A program made the translations under genes and the position numbers. DNA of 64,000 nt from Bilabrum cf. latius (taxonomy: Eukaryota): assembly GCA_965178125.1 (NCBI GenBank), contig OZ237750.1:682001-746000 (forward strand), read 5' to 3'. The number at the start of each line of letters is the position of its first letter. The first letter of the stretch is position 1. The notes under the pieces were generated by a model. That model was not told the DNA's origin and made no database searches. It worked only from the letters and a program-made list of their open reading frames with translations. Positions 16,327 through 55,163 of this stretch are shown in pieces.

Positions 16327-16500
16327 GAGTGTGTTTACAGGTATTCGTATCGGTCCACGAGCATTAGAATCCTGCTTGTCGAAGCACATGTTCGATGCGG
16401 CCAGCTACCTCTGCCCATGCCACTCCTGGACACATCCGGATTCCGGATCAGTTTGACTCCAGCTCCGGTCGGTCTCTGAAATTAGCTGGTCTCAATCTCC

Positions 16501-19500
16501 TTAATCAGATTCGCTGCTTCCATCTGAATCCAGCCCGCCGTGCAGCCACACGTCTTGAGGTGCCTGCCACAAGCCGTTGGCGTCCATCACTGAGGCCGTT
16601 GACCCTACAATAGAGCTCTGAGAGGCCTCGCTCCAAGAGCTCCTGCCACGCAAACACCGCCCCGGTTCTTTTTGCGCGTCACGTGTTCCACGCATGGGCG
16701 GGGCTTCAGCACCGCTGCTACCAAATGGCATGTTGTGGAGCACCACAGCTCTAGCGCCATCATCCAGCAGGGGCTCGCCGCCACTGTGCATCGACCCGAT
16801 GCTGTTCTGCCGCACCAGCTCGCCCCACGCGAACGACTCATCACCAAGCTCACCTCCAGCCCCAGTTGTCCAAGGTGAGGCGGGCGACTGGCTCCCGTCT
16901 CCGGCTTGCAACATGGCACTGGCTCGGGGTGTAAGTCGCCGGATGGACATGCGCGGCCCGCCCATCGCCCTCCGTTGCGGATTTGCTTGCGCTGCGAACG
17001 GCTTTCTGGCATCCTCCACCCGCTCATCCTCCTCCGAGTCATCCGTGGGGGCGGCTCTGTCATCTTGCGTATTCGCACCTTGACCATCGTGCACCTCTGG
17101 CGTTGGCGAAGGTCGACTTGGAGCAGCTGGCTTGATCGGCGGTGGTGGTGCCATACTCTGTCGGCTGGTTGCTGCTGTGGACTTCACTCCTCCAGACGCA
17201 AGCTACTTCTGCTCTGGCGCTTCTTCCATCCACAACTGCAGTGGAGAGGGCACATCTGCGGTAGATGACGGCGATGTCTGGGCCGGGGTGGCCCGTCCAT
17301 CCGCGTGTCGGAGTGTCCGCGTCAGTGTTGCAGGAGAGGCCGGAAGAACATGCTGCATCTGGGTCGCTACGCTCTCTTCCGCTGCAATCTAAAGCTATCC
17401 CGGTGGTGCAGTGGGTTTCCGCTTCAAAGCCGGGGGCGCTAGAGGATGGCCGTCGCGCTCCTGTGGTTCGTCCAGTACGATGGGCATCGATGGCTTGCGC
17501 TTCAGCTTAGGAGGAGGCGGCACTTCAGCCCCGCTTGGAGGCAGTGATGGCTTTCGCTTGGCCTTTGGTGGCGGTGGAGCACTACCCTAGGTGGTCGACG
17601 GCGGCGAAGGTCGTGACGATAGACGGGTTTGCGACACGGGCGGAGACAGGGGCAGCAGTGTTGCTGAGCAAAGCGCAGCTGTAGTGGGAGCGGTGTCTGA
17701 AGCAACTTGAGCAAGCCTGCTTGGCCTGCGCTTCCCGTCGGGGGGAGGCCTTGGCCTGTGGTGCAAGTCCCGCCTATCCCTCCGATCTAGTATCTCCTTG
17801 GCAGCTGACCTGCTGCTTGGTGTCTCCTTGGCAGCCGACCTGCTGCTTGGTGTCTCCTTGGCAGCCGACCTGCTGCTTGGTGGAACAGGCTGTCGCTGCT
17901 GCTAAGGCACCGTTGCAGCCGATCCGATTGGCGAAAGATCTGCCGTCCGGGGCGCTCCCAGCGAATGAATAAGCCCCTTTGAAGCGCCTTTCGTTGCAGT
18001 GCTACTCCTGCTTGGGATAGTAGTGACTGCATTGGGCGGACTGGCTGCCTGCAGCTGCAATGGCTGCCTCACTGCAGTAGGGACACGCGGGCGACTCACA
18101 GCCTGAGTCCTCTCGAGATCTGCTGAATCACTGCCCATAGGCCTCAAGGAAACGCCGCCAATCTGTGACTCAGACAAGAGCGTGCGAGCCCGCGGTGGAG
18201 CGGGACCCGGGCTATTTTCGCGGTGATGGCTGGCGTCCGGGCCCACCATGGCTGGACCAGGGCCCATGCCTGCAGCAAGCTCCTCGTCCTGCTCCACAAC
18301 CCGGATGCGTTTGATTGCGGGGCGGACCGAACTCGGGTGATTGTAGCTGGGGAACTTCTGGCCGGCAATCAAGGGCAGCAGTGGCACGAGTCCCATGGCT
18401 GCCAGGTCGCTCATGCTTCCGGTGCATGCTTCCGGTGCACCGTGCGGCTGTGGCCGAGCCATTAGCTGACTTGCTGCATCCGTATGCGCTGCGTGATTTT
18501 TCTCCGGTATGTCAGATACAATGCCATGATCGCCGTGATGCCTGCGCTGCGGTGCCTTCTGCCAGCCTAGACGGGTGCTTCGCTGGGAGCCTGGTCGAGC
18601 AGTCGTCGATAGGCCCTTTCTAACGTGAGAGAATTCCCACTGAGAGCTACCGTCAGCCCTGAATCGCTGTTGCCTGGCCGCCTTCCAGAGTGTACTGGAC
18701 AGGGCTCGGACAACAGCGTCTCTTGCGGTGCGGCTGTTCACCTGCAGGTCAGACGCGCTCCATGACCGCTGCACAGCGCCTGCTTCGGCCTCTTGGACAA
18801 TCGCAGCATCGGAACTTCCATTCGGAGAGCCACTCTAGAAATACTGCTGGCCGCTGGTACGGCTGTCTGCAGTGCCGGGAACGCTGAGCCTTGTGCCTGC
18901 TGAAGAGTGCGCAAATTGCGCCTGTGTCTGGCTGCTACCTGCACCTGCATCAGGTGTAGGCTGCAAGGTGGTGTGATCCCGTGTGCCGAACTCACGGATG
19001 CTTGTTAAATCCTACAGGACGGGTTTCCAGCCCGAGGTTTCAACTTCCTCTGCAGCAGCAGCAGCAGCAGCACTCATCACGATGCCGGGGTGGGACGAGG
19101 AGGAAGGCCTCCGGGAGGCGCCCGAGCGATCGGGCATCACCGGCATGCGTCGCTTCCCTCGAGTCGTGCTCGTCGCTTGGGCTGAACGGACAGGTGGCAT
19201 GTGGTGCGACTAATCCGCGACCTTCTCATCCCTGCCGCACATCTCGGCCAACAAAACATACACGTCAGTCGGCTTGCCCCCTGGCCGAGATCCCTTAGGC
19301 TTGGGGTAGGCCTGGGCAAGTGCATGCGAGGGTTGCCTGGGTTGTGGTGCAACTGTCTCAACTGGCGTATATCCATAAGAACTGTCACCATTTGCTTGCT
19401 ACCACTTGCGATTCTCGCTAAATTCACGCTGCAATTGCTGTGACAACTCGCGAGGCGTACCGCCGATTCGACCGGCCAACGCATACGGAAGTGGCTGCCA

Positions 19501-19668
19501 TCGTTGGTCGGACTGCTTTGTAGAAACGGATACTTGCTGCAATCCTGGGCTTGGATCTAGCGTTCGTTTGACGAATTTCTTGCTCTCAAATAGTTCATCA
19601 TTGGCTGAATTCGGACGTCTCGCGCCAGTTGGTCGCTGAATTTGCTGTGGGGTAGGCGCTATTGCCAT
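16501..19668 (-). CDS. Pro/Ser-rich low-complexity hypothetical protein (~1055 aa)
   Basis: One frame from ATG 19666-19668 to TAA 16501-16503, interrupted only by 9 TAG (19399, 19210, 19012, 18835, 17902, 17587, 17395, 17389, 17203). Confidence 0.75.
17791..17880. repeat. 30-bp tandem repeat x3 (coding, PSSRSAAKET)
   Basis: Three near-identical copies of tgtctccttggcagccgacctgctgcttgg, in frame within the minus-strand gene. Confidence 0.9.
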
Positions 19669-20002
19669 CGAGCCGAATCTGGATTCAATCGGATGATGGT
19701 TTTGCGGTTCAGCCAGCACCCGAGATTCTAGACAATATCGAGATGGTTTCGATTGCGAAACCAAGGAGATTGCTGACTCATATCGCTTTCTCCCCGCTCT
19801 CAATCCAGCCTCAATAGAAGTTAGCTAATCGTTCAATGAAACCATTGCACACAATCGCTTCAATTCCGCAAGATTCTGCCTTGGCAGAAATCTGAAACGG
19901 ACAGACAGTCGGAATGCACAAGAGTGCAGTGCACTTTCCGAACAAGGCCGCGGTGCTGCGGTGCTCGCTGCAGGAGCTGCGTGCTGGGTGTTCTTTGCGT
20001 TG

Positions 20003-20096
20003 CAACTCCCTTCGGATGCACCTTTGGGGGCGATGTATTCTGTCGACATCCATCACTTCGTCCGACCAACCCTCCGGATGCACCTCTGGGGGCGAT
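20003..20096. repeat. Intergenic ~30-bp imperfect direct repeat, two copies
   Basis: caactcccttcggatgcacctttgggggcgat (20003-20034) and caaccctccggatgcacctctgggggcgat (20067-20096). Confidence 0.75.
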
Positions 20097-20220
20097 TAGA
20101 TCTAGTGGGCCTGAGTAGCCTACCCCTTGAGTCTACCCCTTGGACTGCCTGCAGCCTGATAGCTTCGTTTCGAGCAATTTACAGCCATCGATTTGCACCA
20201 AATTACCGGGCAGTTGCAAG

Positions 20221-21370
20221 TCAAGTCGTAGCTGCGCTGCTATCGGCTAGATTTACCTACGCACCACCAGGGGAATCCGAGCATCGGCTGGTCGCGCCGC
20301 TGTCTTCGGGCGCTGCAGTCACGTCCAAGCCAAGCACACACTTCAGTTTAGCCATGTGCACAGCAGGAAGCTCTCTATCCAACGCACCGACCAAATCCTT
20401 CAGAGTCTCGAGCTCCTTGGAGACGGCCCCGGACAGGCGTGCCTCCGAGTCCTCGTTCTCAGACTGAATGTGGAGGCATACCACCGCCCTAGGACTAGGC
20501 TCACCGCCTGATTCCGACGCAGCATGCCCTTCGGAGCTGTTTTTCATGCACAGGCCTCCCCCTCGCTGGCCCTCCACTGGGGCTTGGTGCAAGCCAACCG
20601 AGAAGAAGGACACAAATCCGTCACCGTCATGACAGGTCTGAAACATGGCATTTGCCGGAGAGAAACGGCCGCCATGCATAACTACCGATAGCTCCCTAAG
20701 TTTATTTGGCTCGGGATCGAAAGGAACCCCGCCATCCTTCAGGTCTAGCCAGACAGGCTTGCACCCATGCGCCTCATACACGCCCATTGCCGCCACTGTC
20801 TTTAGCTCCGGCATCTCCATGAAAGGCACATCTGGTCCAAAGCACCAGCAATGATACATCAAGTTGACTTCATCATCATTGGTTGAGATGAACTTCGAGC
20901 TTGGTTGCCGAGGGGCTGTGGGATGGACAGCGACTACAATATCCAGAGCATCGTCCGGGACGTGAGCAACAGCCGCACAGACTTTCTCCGGCATGTTTCC
21001 CCTCAAGGCGCCTGCATTCAACTTAAGCAAAACATACGGCAGACAAGGGGAGTAGTCCTCCCCATATACTCCTAAATGTGGAACCTGCGAAGAGCTTGGT
21101 GTGGTTTGCAGATCTACGGGTCAGCCTGGTGCACTACTCGAAGCCACCAGGACAACTACCCAAGTGTGGAGGTGCTCTCACGCATGGGTAGCCCAGCGTA
21201 TCGAAGCAATCGATTCGATCCTTTGTGCCGTACAGATGAAATGCAGAATCGTGAAACGTGCCAACTGGTGACTTGGACTTCTTCCAAGAAAGCAATTCTG
21301 AAGCGCTCTCTGCATCTGAATGCATTGATTCTGACTTATCAGCTGTGTCATCGCCAGCAACCGCTGCCAT
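20221..21370 (-). CDS. Hypothetical protein, intron-containing
   Basis: Main exon 20221 to about 21010, reading through TAG 20257 to TGA 20221. Upstream exon from ATG 21368-21370 with a GTGAGA donor and a CTGAC..TAG acceptor near 21114. Exact splicing is uncertain. Confidence 0.55.
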
Positions 21371-21484
21371 GACGCAATATGGACAATAGATCTACGTGAG
21401 TTGCCGAAACGCAACAGCCTGAGGTGTGACTAGTGCATCGGATCGGAGTGATCCGATCACGCTACCTAATCTGATCAGTTCATT

Positions 21485-24400
21485 TTACACGCCACCGGTG
21501 CGCACGAGGCCCCTCCTGCGCTGCCCTGCCGCCCCGCTAGTAGGCACACGCACGCCGTGATCTCCAGCGATCACCCGCTCCACCCTGTCGTGCTCGCTCT
21601 AAAGGGCAGCTCGCAAACCCCCAAAGGTGCCAGACCTCGCAGAAGTACCGCCCCGCCCACCCACCCCTTCCCCACGGCGTAACGACCTGCTTCCCAGTAG
21701 CGCGGGCTGCGAGGCGGATCCATGAAGCCGCCGCCCCCCACTTGCACTTGCAGCCCCGTTGGCACCGCCACCGCCACCGCCGCGATTCAACGAGCCAAAC
21801 CCGCTGGACCTGCTACCCCGCCCCAAACCCCCACTCACACCTGCCCCTTCGTCCGCTGCAGGGTGGAACGCACCCTTAGAGCCTACAGCGCCCGTCGCCC
21901 CGAAGCCCCCGCTGCTGGCACTCAGCTGGGCCAGGGCAGAGCCAGGCCTGGCGCCAGGCCCCAGCATACTCTGGGGCGACGCCACCGGCCGCACCACCGG
22001 AGCAGGGGCCCTCGAGGGAACAAGCTCTTCCACAGAGCTGCGCCGACCCGCGCGCCCACCAGCTGCGCTCCCTCTCGAGCCCCGACCCTGTCCCCTGGAG
22101 GATGCAGCCCGCGGTTTGAGCAGCAGCTCAGGGACCTGTCTGCCCCTGGAAGCCAGGGCTTCTCTAAGCTCGGCTTGTTCCTCGGTTTCCGGGGGACGGA
22201 GCCGGACGGGGGAGGCACCCCCGTCTGCCACCGCAGACTATGACCCTCCCTGGCGCTCGGCAGCAGCGGCAGCGGCCGCCTCCTGACTCGGAAGGAGGAC
22301 TGGTGTCCCGTGCACGCTGCCTCGCCGCTTCATTGCCCCGGGCCACGCAGGTGCAGAGTTGAAGGCGGCCGATCCGAACGTTCCGTCGTAGGCCCGTCTC
22401 TCGTACGAATCTCGCCTGGAAACAACCACAGGTGGAGGGGCCTGACGGCTACCACCAAGGTTGGACACGGTCGATCCCACGGGAGACGAGCGGGATCCTC
22501 GCAGGGAAGAGTCAAGCCGGCTGCCACGTGTGCGGAGGTAGGACGCCGAGTGGGACGGACGCAAGGCCTGGCTGCCGGGACCTACCGGCTTTGCCCTGAA
22601 GGAGGGTTTCCTAGTATTCCACTCGTCCCTGAAGACTCGATCGGCTGCAAAGGACGAATACATGGGCGCCCAGTCCTTGGGTTGCGTGTACAGCTCTTTG
22701 CCTTCGTCGTCCAGGTGGTGGTCGTCTTCGTCCTGCTCGGCCAGCGCCCGGTGCTCAAGCAGCGTATCGGTCCACCGCCGTGTGGAGAACCGCTTCGTTG
22801 CGCCCACAGTGGCACCACCGCTTGACGCATTTGGCGGGAGGATATGAACTGCCGACCGTGTGTGGCCGCTCCCGCGCAGGATGGTGTCGCCTGGCCGCCC
22901 GCTGGCAGCAGCAGCCCTTGCATTCGCCCAGTGATCCACCTTGTTTGGCTTCTCTGCGAAGTCTAGGTGCTTTTTCTTGCGATAGGACTCCATGTCCAGC
23001 AGCCGCACGGTCCTCTCTTTAAACTTGAACTCCTTGTCGTCAGGATCTCCCTCCCGCAGTTGCCCGCTGCGCACAACTGGCCGCCCAGTAGTTTCGTCCA
23101 GCCTAGCTCCGCGACGAGCAACAACTCCGGGTCCCGTGGACTTGTCCAGATCGTCTTTTCGATGGCCATCCAGCTCGCTGCCAGCCTACCACGGCCGATC
23201 CACCGCGCTCCGCGGTCGCTGCTGCCTCTGCCTCTCAAACCAAGGCACATCGCCCGCATCTTGCTCCATCGACGGGAGCGGTTTGCCGTGAATGCCCACA
23301 CCAACGGGCCGGCTGTCCTTCTCATTTGCCTCCTTCAGCGTCTATTCCTTCTTTCGCTGCAACAGCTAGGACCTCGACCTAGACAGGTCCCGCAGGCCTG
23401 GCAGCGGTCCCGTCTTCCTCAACGCGTCCTCGTTGTCAGATGCAGGCGAAGGGGCCCTCTCCACCTTCTCGGCCTCGGCACGGTCTCCCGCCGCGCGCAA
23501 CGAGTCCGCGAGTTGCTGTTTCCGTCTTAAACGCAGGAGCTCGGCCCTGCTCTTGGCAGCCCTGGAGCCCTGCAGCCGCTCCACGGGCTGCGAGAACGGC
23601 TTGACGTCGCCGTCCACCATGGGGACATCCGTGAACGTGGGGCTGCCGCGCGCTGCGTCTGCCAAGCCTGCCCCTGCAGGACTCATTGTTGATATAGCCC
23701 GCTGGCGGTCTCCAGCAGTTGTGCGGGAGGCTCCACCGGTGAGTGCCTCGAGGCCATACCTCCTGGCGTACGTGCGGTCCAGTTGCTGGGCCTCCTCCAC
23801 GCGACGAGCGTGTCTAAGCTGGGACCTCGACTTGAGGCCGTGCTTTGCAGCCGTTGCTTTCAGCAGGCCGAACTCGGCGTTTTCGCGCATGGCCTGCTGC
23901 GCCCCCCCGGCGCCCTGGTTGGCATACGGCAGCTTGGCAAGAATCCTGCGGTCCCTGTCCTCCTTGGATTCGTGCTCTCCCCTGTCTCCTCCCGCGCCTG
24001 GCCTCGTGTTCGCGAGGTTGGCCCAGCCGCCCTCTCTGTCATCCGCGAGGACCTCCCCTCTGCGCTGCAGTACCCTATGGTGGGCCGACTGCGCCGAGCC
24101 CGGCTGCACCTTGACAAAGTTGTCGGCGTACCCTGCAGCCATGGCTTCGCACGCTTTTTTCTTCTCGTCGGCGCTGAGCACGCCGGACTAGTCCGTGTCA
24201 AATTGCGACGCAAAGAAGAAGTCCATCTGGCTGACCATGCCGTCGCCGTCCAGGTCGTAAGAGATGTGCGGCCTCATGCGGGCCTTGCGAGCCTGCTTGA
24301 GCTCGGTGTGCGTGCGCAAGGGGGGCTTCTTGCGCCACTGTGCAGGTACTAACGGCGCGTTCGACTTCGTGGAATATAGCCTCGGCTGGCTGTTGCCATG

Positions 24401-24988
24401 GCTCTGCTGTCCAGTTGCGCCCATGCTGCGCGCGACGCCCGCGGTCCGCATGCTCGGGCTGGAGGTGGCCTATCCGTCAGCACCGGCATCCAGCATCGCT
24501 GTGCCGGTGGCACGAAACGTGGCATCGTCTAAGCCCCGTGAGTTGCGCATAGAAGAAGATGTCTTGATCCGGTCGGCAAGCGATGCCGCCTTTGTGCCTG
24601 TCCGGCGCATGGGCGAACCCAGCAGCGGCTGGCTTTGAGTCGCGACCAGGGAGGAGTTTGCCAGCTGCATGCTGGCGCTCAGATCAGGCTCCGGGTGCCA
24701 CATTCCTGGCATTCCTTTCCGTACGCGAATCCCAGACCCCGACTTGTGTTTTGGTAACTGCCTGCCCATCGTGTCAAACTTGGGCGGCAAGTGGCCCTCG
24801 ATGCTGCCGCCAGCACGAACTTCAGGCGGCTCAGCTGCTGACATAGGACGAGCATCATCATCCGCCACATATGCACTCGGAGCTTGAAACGATGATACGG
24901 TAGCTTTAAGCGTATCAAAGTCACGAACGGGATCAACTCGATGCCCAACCGAGTGCTTCGGCTCTTTATGTCTTGGGGCTCCCTCCAT
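21485..24988 (-). CDS. EF-hand-containing protein (~1167 aa)
   Basis: One frame from ATG 24986-24988 to TAA 21485, with TAG at 24470, 24188, 23366, 23342, 23186, 22238 and 21599. Paired EF-hand loops DLDGDGMVSQMD and DTD[TAG]SGVLSADE. Confidence 0.8.
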
Positions 24989-25515: not shown

Positions 25516-28500
25516 ATGGCCGATGGAACCTCAAAATTGGGTCGGAAAGGACGCGGCCCATCTCTTCCGAGCTCCGGCCGACCAGCTGATGCTGGTGCCC
25601 CAAGAGGAGGTCGCAGGATAGCCGCGGGAGGTGGAATGGGGCAGGGGTTGTCGCAGGGCTCGAGCGTTTTCGGATCGCTGGCAGTGTCTGGTGATGTCAG
25701 CTAGACTAAGAGGGCCCCAGCTTCCAAAGGGTTGTACAGCTTTGACACGACAGAGCTTGGCCAGTTCGATTTGAAGCCCTCCAAGGGCGGCCGGCGGCCG
25801 GGAGCGCCCGACTGGACCAAGGCAGCCGACGAGCTGAAGCGCTCAAGGGCGGCGCAAGACCGCCAGCGCGACCGCAGACTCGTAGCATTGCGCGAGTCCT
25901 AGCGGCTGAAGCTCGCCGAGCGCAAGGAGGCTAGAGATAAGGCGGCAAGAACACTCCCGGGGATGCCTGGCGCTGCGGCCCGAGGCCACGGTGCGTACGA
26001 GTCCAAGGAGGCCGGGGGGGGCACCTCACCCATGTCAACGGCGGCGTCCATCCGTCTGCACGCCAGGCAGGATGCCGCGTCTTCCGCTACCGGTGCGTCA
26101 TTGTTCCCTGGAGCGAGCTCAGGGGCGGGAGGGGCCAGCCGCTCGGGCGTTGGCTCCTCTGCAGAGACAAGGACCAAGGGGGGTTACAACGTGGTGGGCG
26201 GCGTGCGCATGGGACCGGGCCCAGCAGAGATCGAGGCGGTTCGGAAAGCGGCAGATGCCGTGGGTGGGGACGACACGGGCGGCAAGGTGTTCCAGGCATT
26301 TGAGACGCTGCGCACCGGGGAGGATGCGGTGACCTTCTTCGCTCACTACGGGCCCCAGTGCCCCGTGAAGTTCGTTTACCTCAACAGGGCGAAGACGGGC
26401 AAGGCGTTCCGCCCTTATGACCTGGTGGTGGTCCCCGAGGAGGACGTGGACCTGGAGCACTTCACGATCAGCGCCAAGGGCGTCGTGCACGTGTGCCCCG
26501 GCGAGCCCTCAGAGTTCCTCACCCTGTCCGAGTGGATGAGGCAGAGCTCCGCCTTTAACGTGGTGCGCAACCTGCGTTTCTTCCGGCAGTTTGTGCCCCG
26601 CAAGATGTTCGACATGTGGAGGACCTTCTCCAACTACAGCAAGTTCAGGCGCAGGCGGCGCGACATCGAGCGGAAGCTATTCATGGCAAGCAAGGTCTTC
26701 TGCAAGCCCATGATGACCATCCGGTAGGCGGTTTCGCACCTGCAGGAGCTGCAGCTGGTGCGTCTGGACGGCGTGCGGATGACGGCAGCGACGTTCGCCG
26801 ACACTCAAGCGCAGGCCCGAGCCATGGCGCAGAAAGAGATCGACAGGCGGCTCGTGCGCATCGTCCGGGTGCTCAAGAGCGTCTGCAAGGACGTCACCGA
26901 TCGTGCCGCCGCAGGGGGTGATGATGATGCCGACGCAGCAGGGGCGATGGGTGGGGGCCGTACGAAGGGGATCCGTGAGGCCAAGGAAGAGGAGATGCGC
27001 AAGGCCAGGGCGCTGCGGCAGGCAGCCATGGAGCAGTCGCGGCTGGGAGCTTTGATTCGCCTGGTGGACTACATGGTGGTGGAGGCCTTCGCGGGCCGGT
27101 GCAAGCAGGACGTGGAGGCCCTCCGCGACGCGATGCACAGCGGCCAGGGCCAGCGAAGCCGCGTGGGTCTCTTCATGACCGAGCTGCGATTCGACGACGA
27201 GGGCACAGTGTTCGCCCCGAACGAGCAGGACTTCTCCTCTGCAATTGAAGAGGTGGTCAGCGAGACGGTGGACATGGTCACCAAGGAGCCCAGGATGCTG
27301 TCAGTGAGGGCGTTCGAGCCCTTCCTGCGCGAGCTGCCCGTGGCCTACGATGCGGCAGCAGCGGGCGGCGTGGCTCCCCTGGGGCTGGACCTCAGGGATG
27401 CGCACAGCTTAGGGGAGGACCCGCGCGTGCTGGCTGCGCTGCCCGAGGGATTCCTGAGCCAGGCCGACGAGGCGCTCATGAAGTCGGTAGAGCCACAAAC
27501 GCGGCTCCTCGGGTTGGGATCGCCCACCGTCGCCGAGCTGTGCTACTCGCTCCCTGAGCTGAGGGCGGGCATGGTGCAGGTGCTTCGCAAGCTGACGGAA
27601 GACTTTGACGGCGCCAGGGCCTTCAGTGAGATGGAGAGCTTCAAGCAGGTGAGGCCTGCCTACGACTACTAGCGGACCCAGGGTCTCTTCGACGAGGACG
27701 GACACTCGCAGCCGTAGCAGATCGCCTCGTCTGATGACGCGTCTTCGGCGGTGCAGGCGGTGTCCGAGCTTCGCCGCGAGATGCAGAAGATCGCGGGCTG
27801 GGACGCGGCTGTGCGCAGCCTGACAAGCACAACCACCCGCGGATGCCTGCACGTGGATGCCAAGGAGCTCAAGGCAGAGCTTGAGCCTCTTACCGAGAGG
27901 GCACTCGGTCGCGTCAAGGAGCAGCTCCTGCACCGCTCGTCGGGCATCTGCAGACGGCTGGCGGACGTGTTCCAGCAGCGAGTCAGCGTGTTTGAGCGTC
28001 GGCCGCAGAGCCTGGACGAGTTTGCTCGACACAAGGAGGATATGGCACGCCTGCAGGAAGAAGACAATCGCCTCATGGAGGACGCCCAGGTTGTCGAGGA
28101 GATGCACAAGCTGGTGACCACGTACCGCGGCAGGATACCCCGCGAGGACGAGTTCCTTGCGGCGGAGATGAAGAGCCTGTTAGGCCGATACCAGGACGCC
28201 ATGATCCAGGGCAAGGGCTTCGTGGAGAGCAGGATGAGGGACATGCGGCACCAGCTGGACATGCGCGTGTTCAAGCTCAAGGAGACTATGGCGCAGCTCA
28301 AGGACCAGGTGAACGAAGGCGAGTTTGTGGACGCGAGCCAACACACCGGCGATATGATCTCCAAGATTGAGTCGGTGGAGGAGCGCGTCGCCACGATGGA
28401 GAACAGAGCTCAGCAGTTCTAGGCGTGGCAGAGGCTCTTTGGTGTGGAAGAGGACACGTTTACCGCGCTAGAGGTTTCTAAGAGCTCCATTCAGAAGCGT

Positions 28501-31500
28501 GCCACCCTGTGGCGCAGCCTTGACGAGTTCATCACCAAGCATGACCACTGGGTGGTTGAACCCTTCCACACTGTCAGCGTGGAACAGCTCGTGGCAGACT
28601 CGAACGCGCTCATGAAGGCCAGCTACGTCGCTGACAGGCAGCTGGGAGATGATGTTTCTGCCATGTTCAAGGAGAAAACGCAGGCCTGGCGGTCCGCGCT
28701 GCCCGTCATCGAGGAGCTCGGGAACCCGTACATGCTCGACCGGCACTGGTCCAAGCTCTATAAGGAGCTCAAGCAGCCCTTCAAGCCCGCAGATAAGAGC
28801 CGGACGCTCGGCGAGCTGATTGACTACGGCGTGCTAGAGATGCGCGACCTAGTGTCCGAGGTCAGCGGCACTGCCTCTGGAGAGCACCAGCTGGAAGAGT
28901 CCCTGCAGGCGATCGCTTCCGAGTGGACAGAGATGAAGTTCCTCACCAGGAACTACCGGGAGCTCAAGCACGTGTACGTGCTGTCAGGGCTGGACGACAT
29001 CTTTGTGCTGCTCGAGGACCACTAGGTGACCCTGCAGACCATGATGGGCTCCCGCTTCATCCAGGGGGTGAGGGATGAGGTGGAGTCGTGGGACCGCCGA
29101 CTGGCGCTCTTGTCAGACACGCTTGACGAGTGGGTACAGTGCATGAAGCAGTGGCAGTACCTGGAGAATATCTTCAGTGCTGAAGACATTCAGCGGCAGC
29201 TCCCCGCTGAAGCCAGCAAGTTCATGACGGTGGACAAGCGCTGGAAGGAGGTGATGCTTCGCACCCACACGAACCCGTCGGTGCTGGCCAGCATCGAGAA
29301 CGGCGACGAGCTCCTGAAGACGTTTCAGCACTGCAACATGCTCCTGGAGGAGATTCAGAAATCGCTCGACGATTACCTCGAGACAAAGCGGTCGGCCTTC
29401 CCCCGCTTCTACTTCCTGTCTGACGAGGACCTACTTGCGATTCTGTCCCAGACGAGGGACCCGCAAGCCGTGCAGCCGCACCTGCAGGGCTGCTTCGACG
29501 CGATGAAGAGCCTCAGGTTTGGCAAGGAGGACCAGGCCGCCGAGATGTTTGGCATGGTCTCATCCGAGAACGAGGAGGTGGAGTTCACGGCGCCGCTAAC
29601 GGCGGCCGGCAACGTGGAGAATTGGCTGGGCGATGTGGAGCGCATGATGCGGCGAACGCTGTACGACGTCACCAAGCAGGCCATGACCGAGTACCCGGCA
29701 GAGCCGCAGGACCAGATCGACCGCAAGGAATGGCTCTTTGGGTATGCGGCACAGCCAGTGCTGACCGTGGACCAGATTTTCTGGGCGGCCAACGTTGAGA
29801 AGGCCATCCGGGAGATGGCCCAGGACCCAGGTGCGCTGACCCGTCTGCTGGAGTTTGTCCGCACGCAGATCAACGCCATGGTTGCTCTCGTGCGCACGGA
29901 CCTCACGAAGCTGCAGCGGCGCATGCTAGGCGCACTGGTGGTGCTCGACGTGCACGGCCGTGACGTCGTGGCTGCGCTGGAGAAGAAGCAGGTGAGTGCT
30001 ATGGAGGACTTCGAGTGGACGCGGCAGCTGCGGTACTACTGGGAGGAAGATGTCGACAACTGCGTGGTTCGTCAGACCAATACGCGCTTCATCTTTGGGT
30101 ACGAGTACATCGGCAACCAGCCGAGGCTCGTGATTACCCCGCTGACAGACAAGTGCTACATGACTCTGACCGGGGCGCTGCACCTTAAGTTCGGAGGCGC
30201 TCCCGCCGGGCCTGCCGGCACGGGAAAGACAGAGACCACCAAGGACCTGGCCAAGGCTTTGGCAGTGCAATGCGTCGTGTTCAACTGCTCTGATGGGCTG
30301 AACTTCCAGATGATGGGTCGGTTCTTCTCTGGGCTGGCTCAGGCCGGTGCCTGGGCATGCTTCGACGAGTTTAACCGGATTAATATTGAGGTCCTATCCG
30401 TGATCGCGCAGCAGATCCTAGTCATTCAGGAGGGTCTTAAAGGCGGCGAGACCCACATCGAGTTCGAGGGCAAGGAGATCCCACTGTCGTCGAGCTTCGG
30501 TGTTTTCATCACCATGAACCCGGGGTACGCAGGCCGAACCGAGCTGCCCGACAACCTGAAATCCCTCTTCCGACCTGTGGCCATGATGGTGCCGGACTAC
30601 AGGCTCATTGCGGAGATCATCCTCTTCTCGCAGGGCTTCGGCGAGGCCTTTGCCCTTTCCAACAAGATGGCACAGCTGTACAAGCTTGCGTCCGAGCAGC
30701 TGTCCAAGCAGAGCCATTACGACTACGGCATGAGGGCGGTGAAGAGCGTGCTGGTTGCGGCTGGCCAGCTCAAGCGGAAGGAGCCCGATGTGGATGAGAC
30801 CATCCTCCTCATCCGGTCGATGCGTGACTCGAATGTCCCCAAGTTCCTTCAGCAGGATTTGCCACTCTTCCAAGGCATCATTAAGGACCTCTTCCCCAAG
30901 GCAGAGGTACCCTTTGTCGACTACGGCAAGCTGCAAGAGGCGATCGAGTTCTAGCTCAAGCTGCGGGGTCTGGCACTGGTGCCCGGTCTCATCACCAAGA
31001 TCATCCAGACGCACGAGACCCAGCTTGTGCGCCACGGGATGATGCTGGTTGGCGAGGCAGGGAGCGGCAAGTCGGTGAACTGGCAGGTGCTTGCGGATGC
31101 GCTGACGCAGCTCAAGAAGGAGGGCATCGTAGACAAGGATGGCTTTTTCCAGAAAGTCACGTCCTACGTGCTCAACCCAAAGAGCGTGCGGATGGGAGAG
31201 CTGTACGGTGAGACGAGCGCTACCACCGGCGAGTGGACGGATGGAATCATCAGCGCGTTGGCTCGCGTGGCGGTGCGTGACACCAGCAAGGACCGCAAGT
31301 GGATCGTCTTCGATGGCCCGGTGGACGCCATCTGGATCGAGAATATGAACACCGTGCTGGATGATAACAAGACGCTTTGCCTGCCCAACGGCCAGCGCAT
31401 CAAGCTCCCCCCCACGCTGCACATGATGTTCGAGGTGGCCGATCTTGCCGTGGCGAGTCCCGCCACCGTGTCGCGGTGCGGCATGGTGTACATGGAGTTC

Positions 31501-34500
31501 GTGCATGTGGGCCTTGACGCCATCATCGAGACGTGGAGCCATGGCCCCATCGAGGACCTCATACCCGAGGAAAGGGACCGGCTCACCGACATGGTAAAGC
31601 AGATCGCTCCCAAGGCCATCGCCTACATTCGGGAGAATTGCAGGCAGGTTGTGCCGGCCACCGATGGGAACATTCTGCAGTCGTTCCTGGCCATGCTCGA
31701 TGCGCTTCTCACGCCCGAAAACGGCGTTATGGGATCTGGCTTCCGCCGGTAGCCCCAGTCGGCCGCTCAGAAGGCGAGAGAGAGGCTTCTGGGCGGCATC
31801 GGAGTGGGTAAGCCGGCCGCAGACAAGGCACCGGCCAGTGGAGCTGGGGCTGGCGAGTCTAAAGAGGCAGATGCTGAGGCAGCTGCCGCACCTTTGGATG
31901 ATGTAGACGCTGCGGCTGCCCTGGTAGCCGACATTGAGGAGGCGATGGATGGTGGGATGCCCGCTGGCGGCGATTCTGGCGGTGAGCGTCCCGACGGCGC
32001 CATGGGTGACGAAGAGCTCGCCACAGTCGTGAACTAGATCTTCACCTTTGCGTTCGTGTGGAGTTTCGGCTGCAACATCCACGATAAGAGCCGCGGAAAG
32101 TTCCAGACGTTTGCCAAGGCTTTGCTCGGCCAGGCACTACCTGCCAGCTTGAAAGACGACGAGGCCGACCTCTACGATTTCTACGTTGACGTGCCCACTC
32201 GCACCATCCGGCCGTGGCACAGTCGGATGGATGCATTCGAGTACACGCCGGGAACCGAGTACTTTGACCTGGTGGTTCCCACTGTGGATACGACAAGGTA
32301 TGCCTACCTCTTTAAGACTCTGGTGGAGCATGGCCGCGGCGTCTACTTTACCGGTGAGACAGGCGTGGGCAAGAGCGTGATTGTGAGCGACACGGTGGCG
32401 CGCATGTGCGCGGGAGATGAGGCCAAGTTCGTCACCAAGACGATCAACTTGTCGGCGCAGACGCAGGCCAGTAATATCGTGGATGCGCTCGAGGACGCCC
32501 TGGACAAGAAGCGCAAGACGCTGCTCGGCCCGCCCGCAGGCAAGCGCATGGTCGTGTTTGTTGACGATCTCAACATGCCAGCCAAAGAGGAGTACGGAGC
32601 CATGCCTCCAGTCGAGCTGCTGCGGCAAGGAATCGACCAGAAGGGCTTCTACGACACGACCAAGTTGTTCTTCAAGAACATCGCGGACTGCATCTTCTGC
32701 GCCGCGTGCGCTCCACCAGGCGGAGGCCGCAGCGAAGTCACTCCCCGTCTGGAGAGGCACTTCCACGCTATCTGGATCGAGAGTTTGAGCCGGCAGAGCA
32801 TGATGACCATCTTTGAGTCCATCCTGGGAGGATTCCTCGCCCACACTGCCGCGAGCATTGCGGATTGCTCCAAGCCGCTCGTATCCGCCGCCGTGAATGT
32901 GTACAAGCACGTCGAGCAGGAGATGCTGCCCACGCCTAGCAAGTCACACTACACGTTCAACCTGCGAGACCTGTCGAAGGTGTTCCAGGGCGTGCTCATG
33001 GTGGACCCTGCGTATCTGCAGGACGAGGGCGCCTTGCTGCGACTGTGGATCCACGAGGAGCTCCGCGTGTTCCGGGACCGTCTTGTGGACGACGACGACC
33101 GCAAGCAGTTCAACGTGCTCATCGAGGAGCAGCTGCAGACCGGCCCCCTGCACGAGGTGGTCAAGGCCTGCCAGGAGGCGGCGGAGAAGGCCGCCGAAGC
33201 GAAGGCGGCGGAGGAGGGGGACGGCGCCGGCGCGGAGGCCTCGCGCATCCTGTCGCACTCGGGCCCCGCTGCGTGGCGCAAGGAGGGGTTCAGAGACCTG
33301 CTGTTCGGGGACTACTTGAGCCGGGACGAGAAGAAATACTCGGAGATTATGGAACCCGAGAAGTTGCCCGAAGTCTTCGCCGAGAATCTCGACGAGTACA
33401 ACATTAGCTTTCCCACGTAGATGCACCTGGTCTTCTTCCGAGACGCAGTGGCGCACATCAGCAGAGTCGCTCGCATCCTTCGGCAGCCGCGAGGCAATGC
33501 TATGCTTGTGGGTGTCGGAGGAAGCGGCCGTCAGAGCCTGACGAGGCTGTCTGCTTTTATTGCCGAGTTCCAGTGCATGGGCATCGAGATCACAAGGACG
33601 TACAATAAGGAGGCCTGGCGAGAGGACCTGAAGCGTGTCCTCATGCAGGCAGGTGCAAAGGCCAAAGACGTGGTCTTCTTGTTTTCCGACACGCAGATCA
33701 AGGAGGAATCTTTCCTGGAGGACATCAACAACATTCTCAACAGTGGTGATGTGCCCAACCTGTACGCGCCTGACGAGTTCGAGGCAATTATCGGCGACGT
33801 GAGGCCATTGTGCAAGGCGGCTGGCAAGATTGACACCAGAGACAACATCTGGCAGCACTACATCTCGCTGGTCCGCAGCCACCTGCACGTCGTCCTTGCC
33901 TTTTCGCCTATCGGCGGGTCGTTCCGGAACAGATGCCGCATGTTCCCCTCGCTTGTGAACTGCTGCACGATCGATTGGTTCAGCGCGTGGCCCGAGGATG
34001 CGCTCTACTCTGTCGCGGAGAGCTTCCTCGGCAAGGAGGGCGGTCGGCCCCTGGGCATCGAGGGCATGGTGGACCCCCTCTGCAACATGTGCGTGAAGAT
34101 CCACAGGTCGGTCGAGGTGTCCTCTGGAAGGTTCCTGCGAGAGAAGCGAAGGTACAATTACACGACGCCCACGTCGTACTTGGAGCTCCTGCGGCTCTAC
34201 ACAGAGATGCTCACCACCTAGCGGGGCATCGTGGATGGCAAGATCTCTCGGTACGAGGGCGGGCTCACCAAGCTGGCTGAGGCCGAGAAGGTCGTGGCTG
34301 AGCTGCAAGTCGAGCTGACCAAGCTGCAGCCCACGCTGAAGAAGGCGGCAGAGGACACCGAGGCGCTGCTGAAACAGCTCGCGGTAGACCAGAAAGATGC
34401 GGACGAGGCCGCTGCACAGGCGCAGAAGGATGAGGAGGCCACCACCAAGCAGGCCGCCGAGGTCAAGGTCATCAAGGACGACTGCCAGAAGGACCTGGAC

Positions 34501-37500
34501 GAGGCGCTGCCGGCGTACTACGGGGCATTAAAGGCGCTTGATAGCCTAGACAAGGCGCAGATCAACGAGGTGAAAGGGTTTAAGAAGCCGCCAGACCTCG
34601 TCGTGACCGTGCTCGAGGCCGTGTGCATCCTTCTGCAGGAAAAGCCCGACTGGAGCACGGCCAAGCGCGTGATGGGCGACATGAAGTTTATCGATCGGCT
34701 GAAGGGCTACGACAAGGACAGCATCGATCCCAAGGTCATCAAGAAGGTGGGCAAGTACATCAAGATGGAGAAGTTCCAGCCCTCCGAGGTCAAGTCGGTC
34801 TCTCTCGCCGCCACCTCCCTGTGCATGTGGGTCCGCGCCATCTTCAAGTACGACGCTGTGGCCAAGAACATCGAACCCAAGCGGAAGGCCCTCAATGAGG
34901 CCATGGCAAGCCTGGAGAAGGCACAGGCCATCCTTGAGCAAAAGAGGGCGGCTCTCCGCGAGATTCAAGCCAAGGTAGCCGACCTTCAGCGGCAGTACGA
35001 GAACTCTGTCAACGAGAAGGAGCGGCTCGAGCGGCAGCAGAAGCAGACCGAAATCAAGCTGGGGCGGGCGCACAAGCTTATCGACGGACTCGGTGCCGAG
35101 GCGGGCCGCTGGAGGGAGGCGCAGGTGCAGCTGACGGAGGACAAGAAGAACCTCACCGGAAATATGATCCTGTCTGCCGGCTGCATCGCGTACACTGGGC
35201 CGTTCACCGCCGACTTTAGGCGGACAATGTCCGCCGGTTGGGTCCAGACTTGCCAGGCGAAGCGGATCCCCGTGGACCCTCGCTTCGAGCTGAGCCGCAT
35301 CCTTGCGGATCCTGTGGAGGTGCGCGAGTGGAACATCCAGGGACTCCCCGCGGACGACTTCAGCACCGAGAACGGCCTCTTTGCGACTCGGGGTCGCCGC
35401 TGGCCTCTGATGATCGACCCGCAGGGCCAAGCCAACCGGTGGGTCAAGCAGATGCAGAAGGACAACGGCCTCCGCGTGATCAAGCTTTCCGAGGCGGATT
35501 TCTTGCGGACGCTGGAGCACGGCATCCGCTTCGGGCAGCCTATTTTGCTCGAGAACGTGGAGGAGGAGCTGGACCCTGCCCTGGAGCCGGTCCTTCTCAA
35601 GCAGGTCTTCAAGAAGCAGGGGCTCGCCACTCTGCGGCTGGGCGACAGCGACGTGCCGTACAGCGATGACTTCAGGTTCTACATCACCACGAAGCTGGCG
35701 AACCCGCACTACATGCCTGAGGTGTGCGTGAAGGTGACGGTGATCAACTTCACGGTGACCATGTCTGGCCTGGAGGACCAGCTCCTCGTAGACGTGGTGG
35801 CGCACGAGCGACCCGACCTCGAGGAGCGCAAGAACAAGCTGATCGTGTCGATCGCCTCGGACAAGCGACAGCTCAAGGGCATTGAGGACAGCATCCTCAA
35901 GATGCTAGCAGAGGCGCAGGGCGACATCCTCGAGGACGAGTCGCTGATTGACTCCCTCGGGCAGTCCAAGAAAACCTCGGCCGCGATCAATGAGCGCATG
36001 CACGAGGCAGAGAGGACCACGAAAGAGATCAATGAGGCGCGAGAGGGGTACAGGACCGTGGCCACGCGAGGCTCTGTTCTGTACTTTGTGATTGCTGACC
36101 TTGCGAACGTCAATGCCATGTACCAGTTCTCGCTGCAGGCGTTTCAACGCCTGTACAACATGCGCATCGAGAAGAGCGAGGCCTCAGAGGACCTCGACAA
36201 GCGCCTGGACATTCTGACCAACGACATCACTAAGTCGTTCTACGAAAACCTCTGCAGAGGCCTCTTCGAGCGCGATAAGATGCTGTATTCGTTCCAGATC
36301 GCCGTTTCCATCGCCAAGCAGGCCGGACGCATCACGGACGAGGAGTGGCAGTTCTTCCTCGTAGGATCTGCGGCCAAGGACGACGGTGGTAAGGCCCAGC
36401 ACCCTCCCACGCAGGAATGGCTTTCGGCCAAGGGCTGGATCCAGGTGCTCGGACTAGAGAAGGCAGTGGGCGGCGGGTCCCCGCTGGTCGGCATTGCCGA
36501 CGATTTGGGTACGCAGCTGGCTGGCTGGAAGTCGTTTGCTACGGACGAGAACCCTCACTTGGCCAAAATGCCCGAGCCGTGGGAATCGCGTCTGTCCGAC
36601 TTCCAAAGGCTGCTGGTGCTGCGCTGCATCCGCGAGGAAAAGACGAATTTCGGTGTGCGCGAGTTCGTGCGGAGGCAGCTGGGCGAGAAGTTCTGCGAGC
36701 CTCCGCCCTTTGACCTGGACGGGGTGTTCGAGGACAGCTCGAGCACCATGCCCATCGTGTTTGTCCTGAGCGCGGGAGCCGACCCCGTGCAGTACCTGCT
36801 GAAGCTCGCTGAGGAGAAGGGCAAGCGCGACAGCTTGCGGATCATCTCGCTGGGCCAAGGGCAGGGACCCCTCGCGGAGAGGCACATGGAGGAGGCAAGG
36901 AGGTCTGGCGACTGGGTCTGCCTGCAGAACTGCCACCTCGCCGAGTCGTGGCTCCCACGTCTGGAGGCAATCCTGGAGCAGACCATGGGCGCGGGGGCCA
37001 GCGGCTCCTCCGAGATCCACTAGGACTTCCGGCTGTGGCTCACCTCCATGCCGAACCCCAAGTTCCCCGTGCCGATCCTGCAGAACAGCATCAAGCTGAC
37101 CCAGGAGCCGCCGCGAGGGCTCAAGGCGAACCTGAGGCGGACATTCCTGGACCTCTCCGATCGCGAGTACGAGGGCTGCACCAAGCCGAGGCCGTTCAAG
37201 AAGCTGCTGTTCGGCCTGGCCTTCTACCACGCCCTCATCCTCGAGAGGCGCAAGTTCGGCGCGATCGGGTGGAACATCCCTTACGAGTGGATGAACAGCG
37301 ACCTGCAGACGGGCATCATGCAGCTGCGCATGTACCTCGAGGAGCAGCCTAATATCCCTTACGAGACGCTCAACGCAGTGATCGGAGACATCACGTACGG
37401 CGGACGCGCCACGGACGCGTGGGACAAGCGCACGAACCTCTCCATCCTGCGCCGGTTCTTCTGCCCCGAGGTGCTGGAGGACGGGTACCGCTTCAGCGAG

Positions 37501-38580
37501 AGCGGCATGTACTTCGCCCCAGCGGAGGGTGACCTCGCCGGGGTCCGCGAGTACATCGAGCAGCTACCTCTGGACGATCCCCCGGACACGTTCGGCCTGC
37601 ATCCGAACGCCGCCATCACGCTTCAGCAGAAGGAGAGCAACTAGCTGATGTCGACGCTGGTGAGCATGCAGAAGGGAGACGGTGGAGGCGGAGGAGGAGG
37701 GTCCGGTGGCCAATCACCTGACGAGGTGGTGAGTGTCATCGTGGAGGACGTGCTGAAGCGCCTGCCCGAGCCCTTTGACAGCAGCAAGGCGCACCCGGAC
37801 ACGTTCGCGACGATCGAGGACGGCAGCATCAACTCTCTCGGAGTGTTTGCGGAGCAAGAGATGGTGCGCTTCAACGGCCTGACGCAGGTGGTGCGAGCCA
37901 GCCTGCTGGAGATGAGGAAGGCCATCAAGGGTCTGGTGGTGATGTCCCCGGAGCTGGAGGCCATGTACAGCGACTTTTAGTTCCAGCGTGTGCCGGTCCC
38001 GTGGGAGGACGCAGCCTACCCCTCGCTCAAGCCGCTGGGCAGCTGGATCGAGGACCTGATGGAGCGGCTGCAGACGCTGCAGCTGTGGCTGACAGACGGC
38101 CCGCCCAAGTGCTTCTGGCTCAGTGGGTTCTTCTTCCCGCAAGGTTTCATGACCGGCGCGCTGCAGACGTACGCTCGCAAGACTCGGATCGCGATCGACA
38201 CGTTGACGTTCAAGACCAACATCCTCTCTCTGAACCAGGAGGACGTGACGGTCGCGCCCGAGGACGGGGTCTACGTGTATGGGCTGTACTTGGAAGGGGC
38301 TCGCTGGGACAAGGAGAACGGCAGGCTGGCAGAGATGACGCCGGGCGTTCTGTTCGACTACATGCCGTGCATCTGGCTCGAGCCGGTGGAGCAGTCGGCG
38401 TTCAGCAAGAAGGAGCTGGACTACGATTGCCCCGTGTACAAGACCTCGCGGAGGGCGGGGACTCTGAGCACCACGGGCCATTCGACGAATTTCATCGTGA
38501 CGCTGCAGCTCGACAGCGCCAAGCCGCAGGACCACTGGATCAGGAGGGGGGTTGCGCTCCTCTCGCAGCTGGACGATTGA
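25516..38580 (+). CDS. DNAH6: Axonemal inner-arm dynein heavy chain, DNAH6-like (4354 aa)
   Basis: Single 13,065-nt frame ending at TGA. P-loops GPAGTGKT, GEAGSGKS, GETGVGKS and GVGGSGRQ, plus FPRFYFLS, CFDEFNRI, RWPLMIDPQGQA, LQNCHLA and C-terminal HWIRRGVALL. 15 in-frame TAG (25702, 25900, 26725, 27670, 27715, 28420, 29023, 30952, 31750, 32035, 33418, 34219, 37021, 37642, 37978). The subfamily call rests on remembered motifs and is less certain than the family call. Confidence 0.95.
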
Positions 38581-44524: not shown

Positions 44525-44653
44525 TACTGAACTGTGTTCCTACTATTTGCGTTTCGCTTGCCTCATCAATTTCAAAATCAGATACAATACCTTGTCAGCA
44601 GAACACCAAAAGAGAATCATGAACCACAGCCCTAGGGGCGTAGGCGGCGAGTA

Positions 44654-47600: not shown

Positions 47601-47831
47601 GCGTATGACTGTCGTTTCGTCATCGAGGATTACAGATTCATTTGTTTTACTGACTGGAATATATTCAATCGGGGCTCTCGACGCCGTCGCCGGCGGAACA
47701 GCTTGTTGAGGGGCTGGAACGGCAGCGCTGCTACCACGAGCCGGTCTTTGCGCCTGGCACATCTCGCACTGTACATGCGCAGCTGCGTTCTAGTATGTGC
47801 ATTGAGTGCAATTCCACTGATCGGTATTCAT
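44654..47831 (-). CDS. RBR (RING-IBR-RING) E3 ubiquitin ligase with N-terminal NZF/RanBP2 zinc finger (~1034 aa)
   Basis: WNCTQCTY[TAG]NAAAHVQCEMC at the N-terminus. Intron 47459-47531. RING1 CDIC..CGHTACIGC..C, IBR CPNKKC..CLYCK[TAG]AFCLSC..WHEGSTC, RING2 CPKC..GCNCMKC..T[TAG]FCYRC. 7 TAG in total. TGA at 44654. Confidence 0.88.
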
Positions 47832-49426: not shown

Positions 49427-51044
49427 ATGCTGGCCCGCGCAATGAGCACTCGTGCTGCAGCTGGATTGGACGCGAAGGTGACTGCGGTGCTTGGTTCTCA
49501 GTGGGGGGATGAAGGCAAGGGAAAGCTTGCCGATGTGCTCGCGGAAGGCTACGATATCGTCGGTAGGTTCAATGGCGGTGCTAACGCAGGACACACAGTG
49601 GTGGTGGGCGACAAGAAGTTTGCTTTCCATTTGTTGCCTTGCGGGCTTGTTTATCCCCACACCAAGAATATCCTGGGGAACGGAACCGTAGTTAGCTTGT
49701 CCGGCCTCTACGAGGAGCTTGCCCCACTCGACCAGGAAGGAATCTCTTGGGAAGGAAGGCTCTTCTTGTCGGACCGCGCGCATGTGCTGTTTGACTTCCA
49801 CCAAGAGGTGGACGGCGTTCTCGAGGCTCGCCGCGTGGGAGCGGGCGGCAAGATGATCGGCACGACCAAGAAGGGCATCGGCCCTTGCTACACCTCCAAG
49901 ATGCAGAGGAATGGTGTTCGTATGGGCCAGCTGAGAGACTGGGACACGTTCGCCAATGTGTACAGGCAGCTGGCCACGGACACGGCCGCCCAGTACGACG
50001 TGGACATCGACGTGGAGGGCGGGCTGGAGCAGTTCAAAGAGCTCAGGGACCGGGCCCTCCCTATGATCGTTGATGGGGTGCAATTCGTCAACCAGGCCTA
50101 CAACGACGGCAAGCGGATCATCACCGAGGGCGCCAACGCCGCCATGCTGGACGTGGACTACGGGACCTATCCATTCGTGACCTCCAGCTCCACCACGGCC
50201 GGGGGGGTCAGCACCGGGCTGGGGCTCGCGCCCAGGAAACTAGAGTGCGTGATCGGGGTCATGAAGGCGTACACCACGCGCGTGGGCGCGGGACCGTTCC
50301 CCACTGAGCTGACGGACGAGCGCGGCGGCGGTGACCGGGAGCTGAACAGCGCCGAGACCGACATTGGCCTGCACATGCAGAACGTGGGGTTCGAGTACGG
50401 CGTGACGACTGGTCGCAAGCGCCGGTGCGGCTGGTTCGATGCGGTGGTGGGTCAGTACTCGCACATGATCAACGACTACAGCTCCATCAACCTCACGAAG
50501 CTCGACGTGCTGGACGACTTGGAGGAACTCAAGATCGGTGAGCAAGTGCTTGCTCGCTCGCTCGCTGGCGAGCTGGTTGCATAGATTTTGTACCCCCGGC
50601 CTAATTTTTGCCCGTCCTGTGCTCCGTATCTACCCCTTTTCGTGCTTGCTGTCGACTTTTGTCGATCACCGCAGCAACCGCTTATCACATCAACGGGGAG
50701 CGCCTGCCAGTCGGCTCGATGCCATCCACGCTGGAAGACCTTGCCAAGGTGGAGGTCGAATACGAGAGTGAGATTTCGTGTCTTTGTTTGGTCTTTGTTT
50801 CTACGTCTTGGTGCGCATTGGTCATGCGTCTGCTCAACCAACGCACAGTGGCAGCTTTATTATTGGCCTCGTTATCGCAGCTGTACCGGGCTGGAAGCAG
50901 AACACGGTGGGCACAACCGAATGGGACGAGTTGCCCGAGAACGCGCGCAAGTATGTAGAGCGTATCGAGCACCACGTCGGGGCCCCAGTATCTTGGATCG
51001 GAACAGGGCCTGGTAGAGATGAGATGGTTCGCAAGGGATTCTGA
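49427..51044 (+). CDS. ADSS: Adenylosuccinate synthetase (455 aa)
   Basis: QWGDEGKGK, GGANAGHT, IGTTKKGIGP, GTYPFVTSS, KAYTTRVG, GVTTGRKRRCGW and LTKLDVLD. Exons 49427-50537, 50675-50767 and 50881-51044. No in-frame TAG. Ends at TGA. Confidence 0.97.
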
Positions 51045-55097: not shown

Positions 55098-55163
55098 GCG
55101 ATGGAGATTTAGAATCAGTTCTAACAACCGACTGTGACGCAATGATCATCTCGATGTCAAAAT

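Follow-up and report, generated by a model that had tools for sequence, protein, structure and literature searches.

The 64-kb window analysed here is the whole stretch from position 682,001 to 746,000 (forward strand) of contig OZ237750.1 in the Bilabrum cf. latius assembly GCA_965178125.1, and its subject is the meaning of UAG and UAA, two codons that almost always change meaning together. All coordinates below are counted from the first letter of the window. The window has a GC content of 60% and carries compact eukaryotic genes on both strands, among which Pfam families identify a SacI-domain protein, a kelch-EGF protein, a Plus-3 protein, two DOMON-cytochrome b561 proteins, an RBR/IBR protein, adenylosuccinate synthetase (ADSS), a fatty-acid desaturase and a dynein. 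Judging from the dynein sequence, the window is nuclear DNA of a heterotrophic, bicosoecid-related stramenopile, a flagellate adjoining Cafeteria: Cafeteria roenbergensis is the top named match (63% identity) among 1736 dynein homologues scored, and in a placement tree built from this one gene (18 sequences, quick tree search), the window and a metagenomic sequence, L001, are sister to Cafeteria plus one further metagenomic sequence, within the stramenopiles, with a Shimodaira-Hasegawa-like approximate likelihood ratio test (SH-aLRT) value of 99. The following features carry much of the argument on UAG and UGA; ORF denotes an open reading frame.

25260-25401, plus strand: 5' intron of the dynein gene, RNA-supported
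25342-38580, plus strand: axonemal dynein heavy chain as identified by Pfam (17 families)
25516..38580, plus strand: axonemal dynein ORF from the first ATG, 4354 codons with 15 in-frame TAG, 0 TAA and 0 TGA, closed by a TGA at the conserved C-terminus
44654..47629, minus strand: RBR/IBR ubiquitin-ligase-like gene with a TAG 31 codons ahead of its TGA
49484..51044, plus strand: ADSS, TGA at 51042-51044, with predicted introns 50538-50674 and 50768-50880, whose phases have an arithmetic basis, not RNA

In this DNA, UAG is a sense codon, and it persists in spliced transcripts. When all three stops are kept, the window contains 17 ORFs of at least 400 amino acids (9,228 amino acids in total); reading through TAG raises this to 32 ORFs (27,946 amino acids), whereas reading through TAA instead leaves 17 (9,234 amino acids). 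With TAG read through, two frames extend unbroken over 4412 and 2443 codons. Across 14 ORFs, 90 in-frame TAG are found in 16,996 codons and are spread evenly along the ORFs (Kolmogorov-Smirnov p = 0.57), with no depletion towards the 3' end; the final 50 codons hold seven TAG versus 3.7 expected, an excess that is not significant. The RNA evidence comes from three sequencing runs guessed to be RNA (none is recorded as such), the contigs of which derive from spliced RNA, as they contain GT..AG joints. One of these contigs, spliced at 25259/25402, spans 25402-29000 with 0 differences from the DNA, six dynein TAG included, indicating that the dynein TAG are not edited away in RNA. In the RBR gene, the TAG 31 codons before TGA lies past the IBR match, in a C-terminal stretch rich in Cys, and a TAG near the 3' end must therefore still be read.

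That UAG means glutamine is well supported by comparison with dynein homologues. In the two best-conserved dynein TAG columns, glutamine occupies the position in 100/113 and 98/120 homologues. Over the 11 of 15 TAG columns that were usable for an amino-acid fit (at least 50 homologues), the log-likelihood is -37.7 for glutamine and -54.0 for the runner-up, lysine, which places glutamine ahead by 16 bits, and the mean share over the dynein TAG columns is 24% for glutamine and 8% for leucine. A second metagenome scan yielded a close relative, L001/L005 (88% amino-acid identity), whose dynein contains 21 in-frame TAG and 0 TAA in 2,347 codons, alongside 19 CAA and 73 CAG, and also ends at TGA. 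Sixteen of the 21 TAG of the relative face a CAG or CAA of the window, and the other five face GAG (2), GCN (2) and CCG (1); in the opposite direction, the seven TAG of the window that fall in the aligned part face CAG or CAA in six cases and GAG in one. With both directions pooled, 22 of 28 TAG sites thus face a canonical glutamine codon (CAG or CAA), and not one of the 28 is TAG in both organisms, suggesting that TAG and CAG exchange freely. The TAG share of dynein glutamine codons is 7% in the window (15/213) and 19% in the relative (21/113).

TAA behaves differently. The eight Pfam-anchored genes (11,413 codons) contain 43 in-frame TAG, 0 TAA and 0 TGA, versus 118 TAA and 303 TAG in their other five frames (Fisher p = 3.2e-6). 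Of all CAA and CAG codons, 17% are CAA and, if TAA tracked CAA, the chance of finding no TAA in the anchored genes would be 3.3e-4. Extending the count to the 16,996 codons of the 14 ORFs also gives 0 in-frame TAA. This zero is not circular, because seven ORFs bounded by TGA alone (g653, kelch-EGF, Plus3, dynein, DOMON1, g51330 and DOMON2) hold no TAA at all; in the remaining TGA-bounded frames, TAA is confined to the 5' flank or the 3' end. The metagenome scan that yielded L001/L005 also recovered 47 loci for dynein in which five or more UAR codons (UAA or UAG) lie in frame; they presumably come from ciliates and similar organisms, and in them the TAA share tracks the CAA share. An unplanned calibration is offered by eight loci with at least five in-frame UAR and a GC content at third codon positions (GC3) of at least 0.66, L001 being left out: they carry 11 TAA among 56 UAR (~20%), and the count for L001 is 0 TAA among 19 UAR. 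If TAA made up 20% of UAR, the 36 dynein UAR codons that the window and the relative have between them would include no TAA with a probability of ~4e-4, and the two pooled have 0 TAA versus 64 TAG in frame. Because both the out-of-frame ratio and the GC3-rich loci retain TAA, the zero does not reflect GC bias, and it is a solid conclusion that UAA is not a sense codon here. Most of the metagenome dynein loci L008-L079 (~50% identity) have both TAA and TAG in frame; in L061, L065, L069, L075 and L077, TAA stands mostly opposite glutamate or aspartate of the window, and these look like lineages in which UAR encodes glutamate.

The 16 gene ends of the window comprise 13 TGA, 3 TAA and 0 TAG. TGA closes g653, SacI, kelch-EGF, Plus3, the spliced gene 20221-21370, dynein, desaturase, DOMON1, RBR, a DUF6010-like gene, ADSS, g51330 and DOMON2. 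The Dynein_C profile reaches position 308/309, five residues before TGA, and the Adenylosuccinate synthetase profile reaches position 416/416, four residues before TGA; at these homology-anchored C-termini, the profile matches show UGA to be the terminator. Among the standard-code relatives, dynein stops at TAG (L002), TAA (L003) or TGA (L004 and L007), which makes the use of TAG as a stop ancestral nearby. No shared motif was found in the 3' flanks after the stops of the window genes. The sequence-only reading that preceded this analysis had held that no gene model contains an internal TAA, that two long frames and possibly a third end at TAA, that about 14 end at TGA, including the conserved C-termini of dynein and ADSS, and that no gene needs TAG as a stop. 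The first and last of these claims agree with the counts given here (0 TAA in the anchored codons and in those of the 14 ORFs; TAG needed at 0/16 ends), and the frames ending at TAA 16501, 21485 and 61323 are all present, on the minus strand; the TGA ends number 13 rather than about 14, the dynein and ADSS termini among them being profile-anchored.

The three ends at TAA involve the following features.

16501..16503, minus strand: TAA closing g16501, followed by GGA GAT TGA (TGA at 16492-16494)
16504..20052, minus strand: g16501, an orphan disordered ORF of 1183 codons with 10 in-frame TAG and 0 TAA
20221..21370, minus strand: two-exon gene, with exon 21370-21182, GT..AG intron 21181-21085, exon 21084-20224 and TGA 20221-20223; the joint is RNA-supported
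21371..21484, minus strand: spacer of 114 bases from TAA 21485 to the next ATG, with a GC content of 0.48 vs 0.70 over the final 60 codons of g21485
21485..21487, minus strand: TAA closing g21485, the best-supported of the putative TAA terminators
21488..24988, minus strand: g21485, an orphan ORF with 7 in-frame TAG and 0 TAA, with an RNA-type contig (3232 bases) over 21847-25078
61323..61325, minus strand: TAA closing g61323, the next in-frame TGA being at 61215, 35 codons on
61326..63998, minus strand: g61323, a membrane-protein ORF extending past the window end, with 11 in-frame TAG and 0 TAA

The most informative of these ends is that of g21485. The 38 codons after its TAA have a codon score of -0.256 per codon and a GC3 of 0.45, and only 0.1% of the same-size windows of g21485 score as low. 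The gene at 20221-21370, in which a single TAG precedes the TGA by 12 codons and exon 2, the part searched, has no Pfam family, lies in the same frame as g21485. We read TAA 21485 as a stop followed by the 114-base spacer and then by a separate gene that would share the frame by chance, given the drop in GC content and the loss of codon score after the TAA. This gene fills part of the 1.4-kb stretch between g16501 and g21485, a gap in the coordinates of the sequence-only reading. More generally, gene frames contain just three TAA, at distances of 3, 36 and 203 codons ahead of the following TGA, with TAG even throughout ~17,000 codons. Such confinement to 3' ends is what would be expected of a stop codon with the next TGA at a random distance; it would be very unlikely for a rare sense codon, and with an unassigned codon the pattern would not arise. 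The positions of TAA at three 3' ends, together with the loss of coding signal after one of them, hence suggest that UAA terminates.

A fourth candidate, the ORF 60517-61290 on the minus strand, was not counted, since its TAA falls inside a predicted intron, 60404-60540. If this intron is real, the ORF continues for 140 codons to TAA 59981-59983, which is followed by one codon and then TGA and would represent a second TAA-then-TGA tandem, as at 16501.

The TAA-ended ORFs are poorly conserved, as the sequence-only reading had noted. None of g16501, g21485 and g61323 contains a Pfam family. No homologue was found for g21485 among proteins of 641-2043 amino acids, nor for the last 233 residues of g16501 among proteins of 128-408 amino acids. 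For g61323, 22 protein matches were obtained, including fragments from a relative that are 71-83% identical, but none extends over the last 95 residues, and a search of metagenomes for its C-terminus gave 51 pattern matches, none of them a relative. RNA-type contigs cover g16501, with no joint near its 3' end. This ORF also contains short tandem peptide repeats (SSRSAAKE-type) at ~17800-17900 and 19039-19082, where the assembly and RNA contigs break.

Taken together, we consider it likely, on the evidence of the gene sequences, that this stramenopile beside Cafeteria has a nuclear code that assigns UAG to glutamine and keeps UAA and UGA as stops (the NCBI table 15 pattern). UGA would be the common stop and UAA a minor one. 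UAG would be decoded by a tRNA-Gln(CUA), one anticodon change away from tRNA-Gln(CUG), and UAA would be left unaffected because the anticodon CUA cannot pair with it; no UUA suppressor tRNA would be present, and eRF1 would have lost recognition of UAG while keeping that of UAA and UGA. The change would have followed the split from the Cafeteria lineage and would be common to at least one other environmental relative. The tRNA and eRF1 part of this proposal is the standard expectation and matches the discussion of Iotanema (PMC5304391). As for the decoupling of UAA from UAG put forward in the sequence-only reading, the reassignment of UAG and the exclusion of UAA from the sense codons both held, whereas the use of UAA as a stop is probable, from the positions of TAA.

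Several observations weigh against this interpretation. The sample amounts to 16 gene ends in one 64-kb window, and the seven TAG versus 3.7 expected within the final 50 codons of the 14 ORFs leave room for occasional UAG termination. None of the TAA ends of g16501, g21485 and g61323 is anchored by homology; nor is any anchored by RNA, there being no poly(A) loose end among the RNA contigs listed. With a TGA two codons past TAA 16501, the end of g16501 fits either codon. The frame of g21485 stays open past TAA 21485, across the RNA-supported intron and through the next gene to TGA 20221, so that fusion by readthrough is formally possible, and the RNA contigs listed leave 21371-21846 uncovered and neither join nor separate g21485 and the next gene. 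The codon score downstream of TAA 61323 is unremarkable (fraction 0.32) and provides no discrimination. Finally, the predicted tRNA and eRF1 were not seen in the window, as already stated in the sequence-only reading: ARAGORN and Rfam detected no tRNA, rRNA or other Rfam RNA within the 64 kb, which also contain no eRF1 gene.

Four other explanations were weighed against the proposed code (table 15 pattern). If both UAA and UAG were glutamine codons (translation table 6) and UGA the sole stop, TAA might be rare merely from GC richness, and this reading draws on the low frequency of TAA, the rarest of the three stop trinucleotides (182 vs 388 TAG on the plus strand), on the dynein GC3 of up to 0.83, and on the TGA two codons after TAA 16501 and the open frame after TAA 21485. 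Yet 0 TAA versus 43 TAG in frame departs both from the CAA share (p = 3.3e-4) and from the out-of-frame ratio (p = 3.2e-6), the relative repeats the imbalance with 0 TAA versus 21 TAG, and GC3-rich loci that use both codons still have 11 TAA per 56 UAR. The three TAA are found at 3' ends only, with TAG evenly spread and the 38 codons after TAA 21485 unlike coding sequence, which leaves table 6 very unlikely. Another alternative would have UAA unassigned, neither decoded nor used as a stop, with all genes ending at UGA. An unassigned codon should be purged, yet three long ORFs would carry TAA shortly before TGA; even with 13/16 ends at TGA and termination at TAA no more than probable, we regard this as highly improbable.

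The remaining two explanations concern UAG itself. A context-dependent UAG, similar to the codes of Condylostoma and Blastocrithidia, would be glutamine internally and a stop near some 3' ends, with UAA and UGA also serving as stops. The seven TAG within the final 50 codons of the 14 ORFs point in this direction, as do gene 20221 and DOMON2, in which a TAG precedes TGA by 12-13 codons in unconserved tails; the excess is not significant, however, and TAG is no scarcer near the 3' ends than elsewhere. No TAG stop is required at any of the 16 ends, the two ends anchored by profiles use TGA, and the TAG 31 codons before the RBR stop, in its Cys-rich stretch, must be read, so that we consider context dependence unlikely. 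The suspicion that the in-frame TAG are artefacts of pseudogenes, assembly errors or RNA editing to CAG found no supporting point, and its probability is negligible in view of the otherwise intact frames of 4412 and 2443 codons, the spliced RNA-type contigs that match the DNA across six dynein TAG, and the independent metagenomic relative that displays the same pattern at different sites.

Some further features of the window deserve mention. Five introns are RNA-supported, namely, 10692-10784 (minus), 11649-11741 (plus), 12057-12147 (plus), 21085-21181 (minus) and 25260-25401 (plus). All five are short (91-142 bases), with GTGAG or GTAAG at the 5' end and CGCAG at the 3' end, and for ADSS, the desaturase and the two DOMON genes, a scan for GTGAG/GTAAG..CGCAG predicts introns that are plausible and in phase. 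The two DOMON-cytochrome b561 genes, at 40901-44524 (plus) and 55164-58142 (minus), are a recent inverted duplication with differing C-terminal tails, being 99.3% identical over 2,021 bases and 99.2% identical over 384 bases. Given the 99.3% identity and the fact that the sole aligned TAG is common to both copies, this pair is uninformative on the exchange of TAG and CAG. Convergent gene pairs at 16326-16501, 44524-44654 and 55097-55164 have their ends only 66-175 bases apart, which requires 3' untranslated regions that are very short or overlapping.

The decoupling of UAG from UAA is itself already published and not new. In Iotanema spirale (Fornicata), UAG encodes glutamine and UAA and UGA are stops (PMC5304391). 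The likeness is close, as in both cases UAG is found at conserved glutamine positions, neither UAA nor UGA occurs in frame and UAG is not needed as a terminator; however, Iotanema belongs to an unrelated supergroup and has UAA as its predominant stop, whereas TGA predominates here (13/16). The Iotanema study anchored termini on transcripts by the hundred and inspected eRF1 (PMC5304391), compared with 16 ends and no eRF1 gene in the present window. The same code, translation table 15, is reported for Protocruzia tuzeti and for the phyllopharyngean ciliates Hartmannula sinica and Trochilia petrani (PMC11687900). There, too, UAG alone passed to glutamine and is even along genes, and C-termini do not use it (in the window, 0/16 ends need it), but these organisms are ciliates in which 93.5-100% of aligned C-termini end at UAA, as opposed to a GC-rich stramenopile that ends its genes mostly at UGA (PMC11687900).

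Table 6, in which UAR encodes glutamine, is used by many ciliates, Hexamita, ulvophyte algae, Streblomastix and Amoeboaphelidium (PMC11687900). These lineages share with the window a stop codon captured by glutamine, one transition from CAG; they differ in that UAA is also glutamine, whereas in-frame TAA was sought here and not found. UAG is likewise decoupled from UAA, with a different amino acid, in the rhizarian exLh (PMC5304391) and in some phyllopharyngean metagenome-assembled genomes (PMC11687900), where UAG is leucine and UAA and UGA are stops; in the window, glutamine is ahead of every other residue by at least 16 bits, with leucine at 8% vs glutamine at 24%. Condylostoma and Blastocrithidia, which have context-dependent codes (PMC5304391), likewise carry stop codons inside genes, but reuse the same codon as a 3' stop, whereas no TAG terminus is needed here, 16 ends being too few to exclude such use.

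Our full-text literature search, the scope of which left out most subscription journals and supplements, found no nuclear code variant in stramenopiles, and a 2024 review of the group mentions none in the parts that were searched. The window probably documents a new, independent and recent origin of the UAG-only code, in a clade with close standard-code relatives. Somewhat more tentatively, the balance tips towards this being the first nuclear code change in stramenopiles, a young capture of UAG alone by glutamine shared by two or more environmental species of a free-living lineage beside Cafeteria. In dynein, sister lineages with a comparable GC content still stop at TAG.

These findings have a practical side. 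The g61323 orthologue of the relative sits in the protein collection as pieces of 111-395 amino acids, and gene callers that assume the standard code shatter the proteins of this organism; genomes and metagenome bins of the clade should therefore be annotated with table 15. The broader significance concerns the coupling of the two codons, as each independent split of UAA and UAG tests whether eRF1 and wobble decoding tie them together. Cafeteria and the lineages represented by L002-L004 and L007, as standard-code relatives, would offer a sharp comparison, in which few eRF1 substitutions and one anticodon change should separate the two states. If the proposed code is correct, the clade would provide a natural and possibly culturable system for understanding how UAG escapes eRF1 without UAA.

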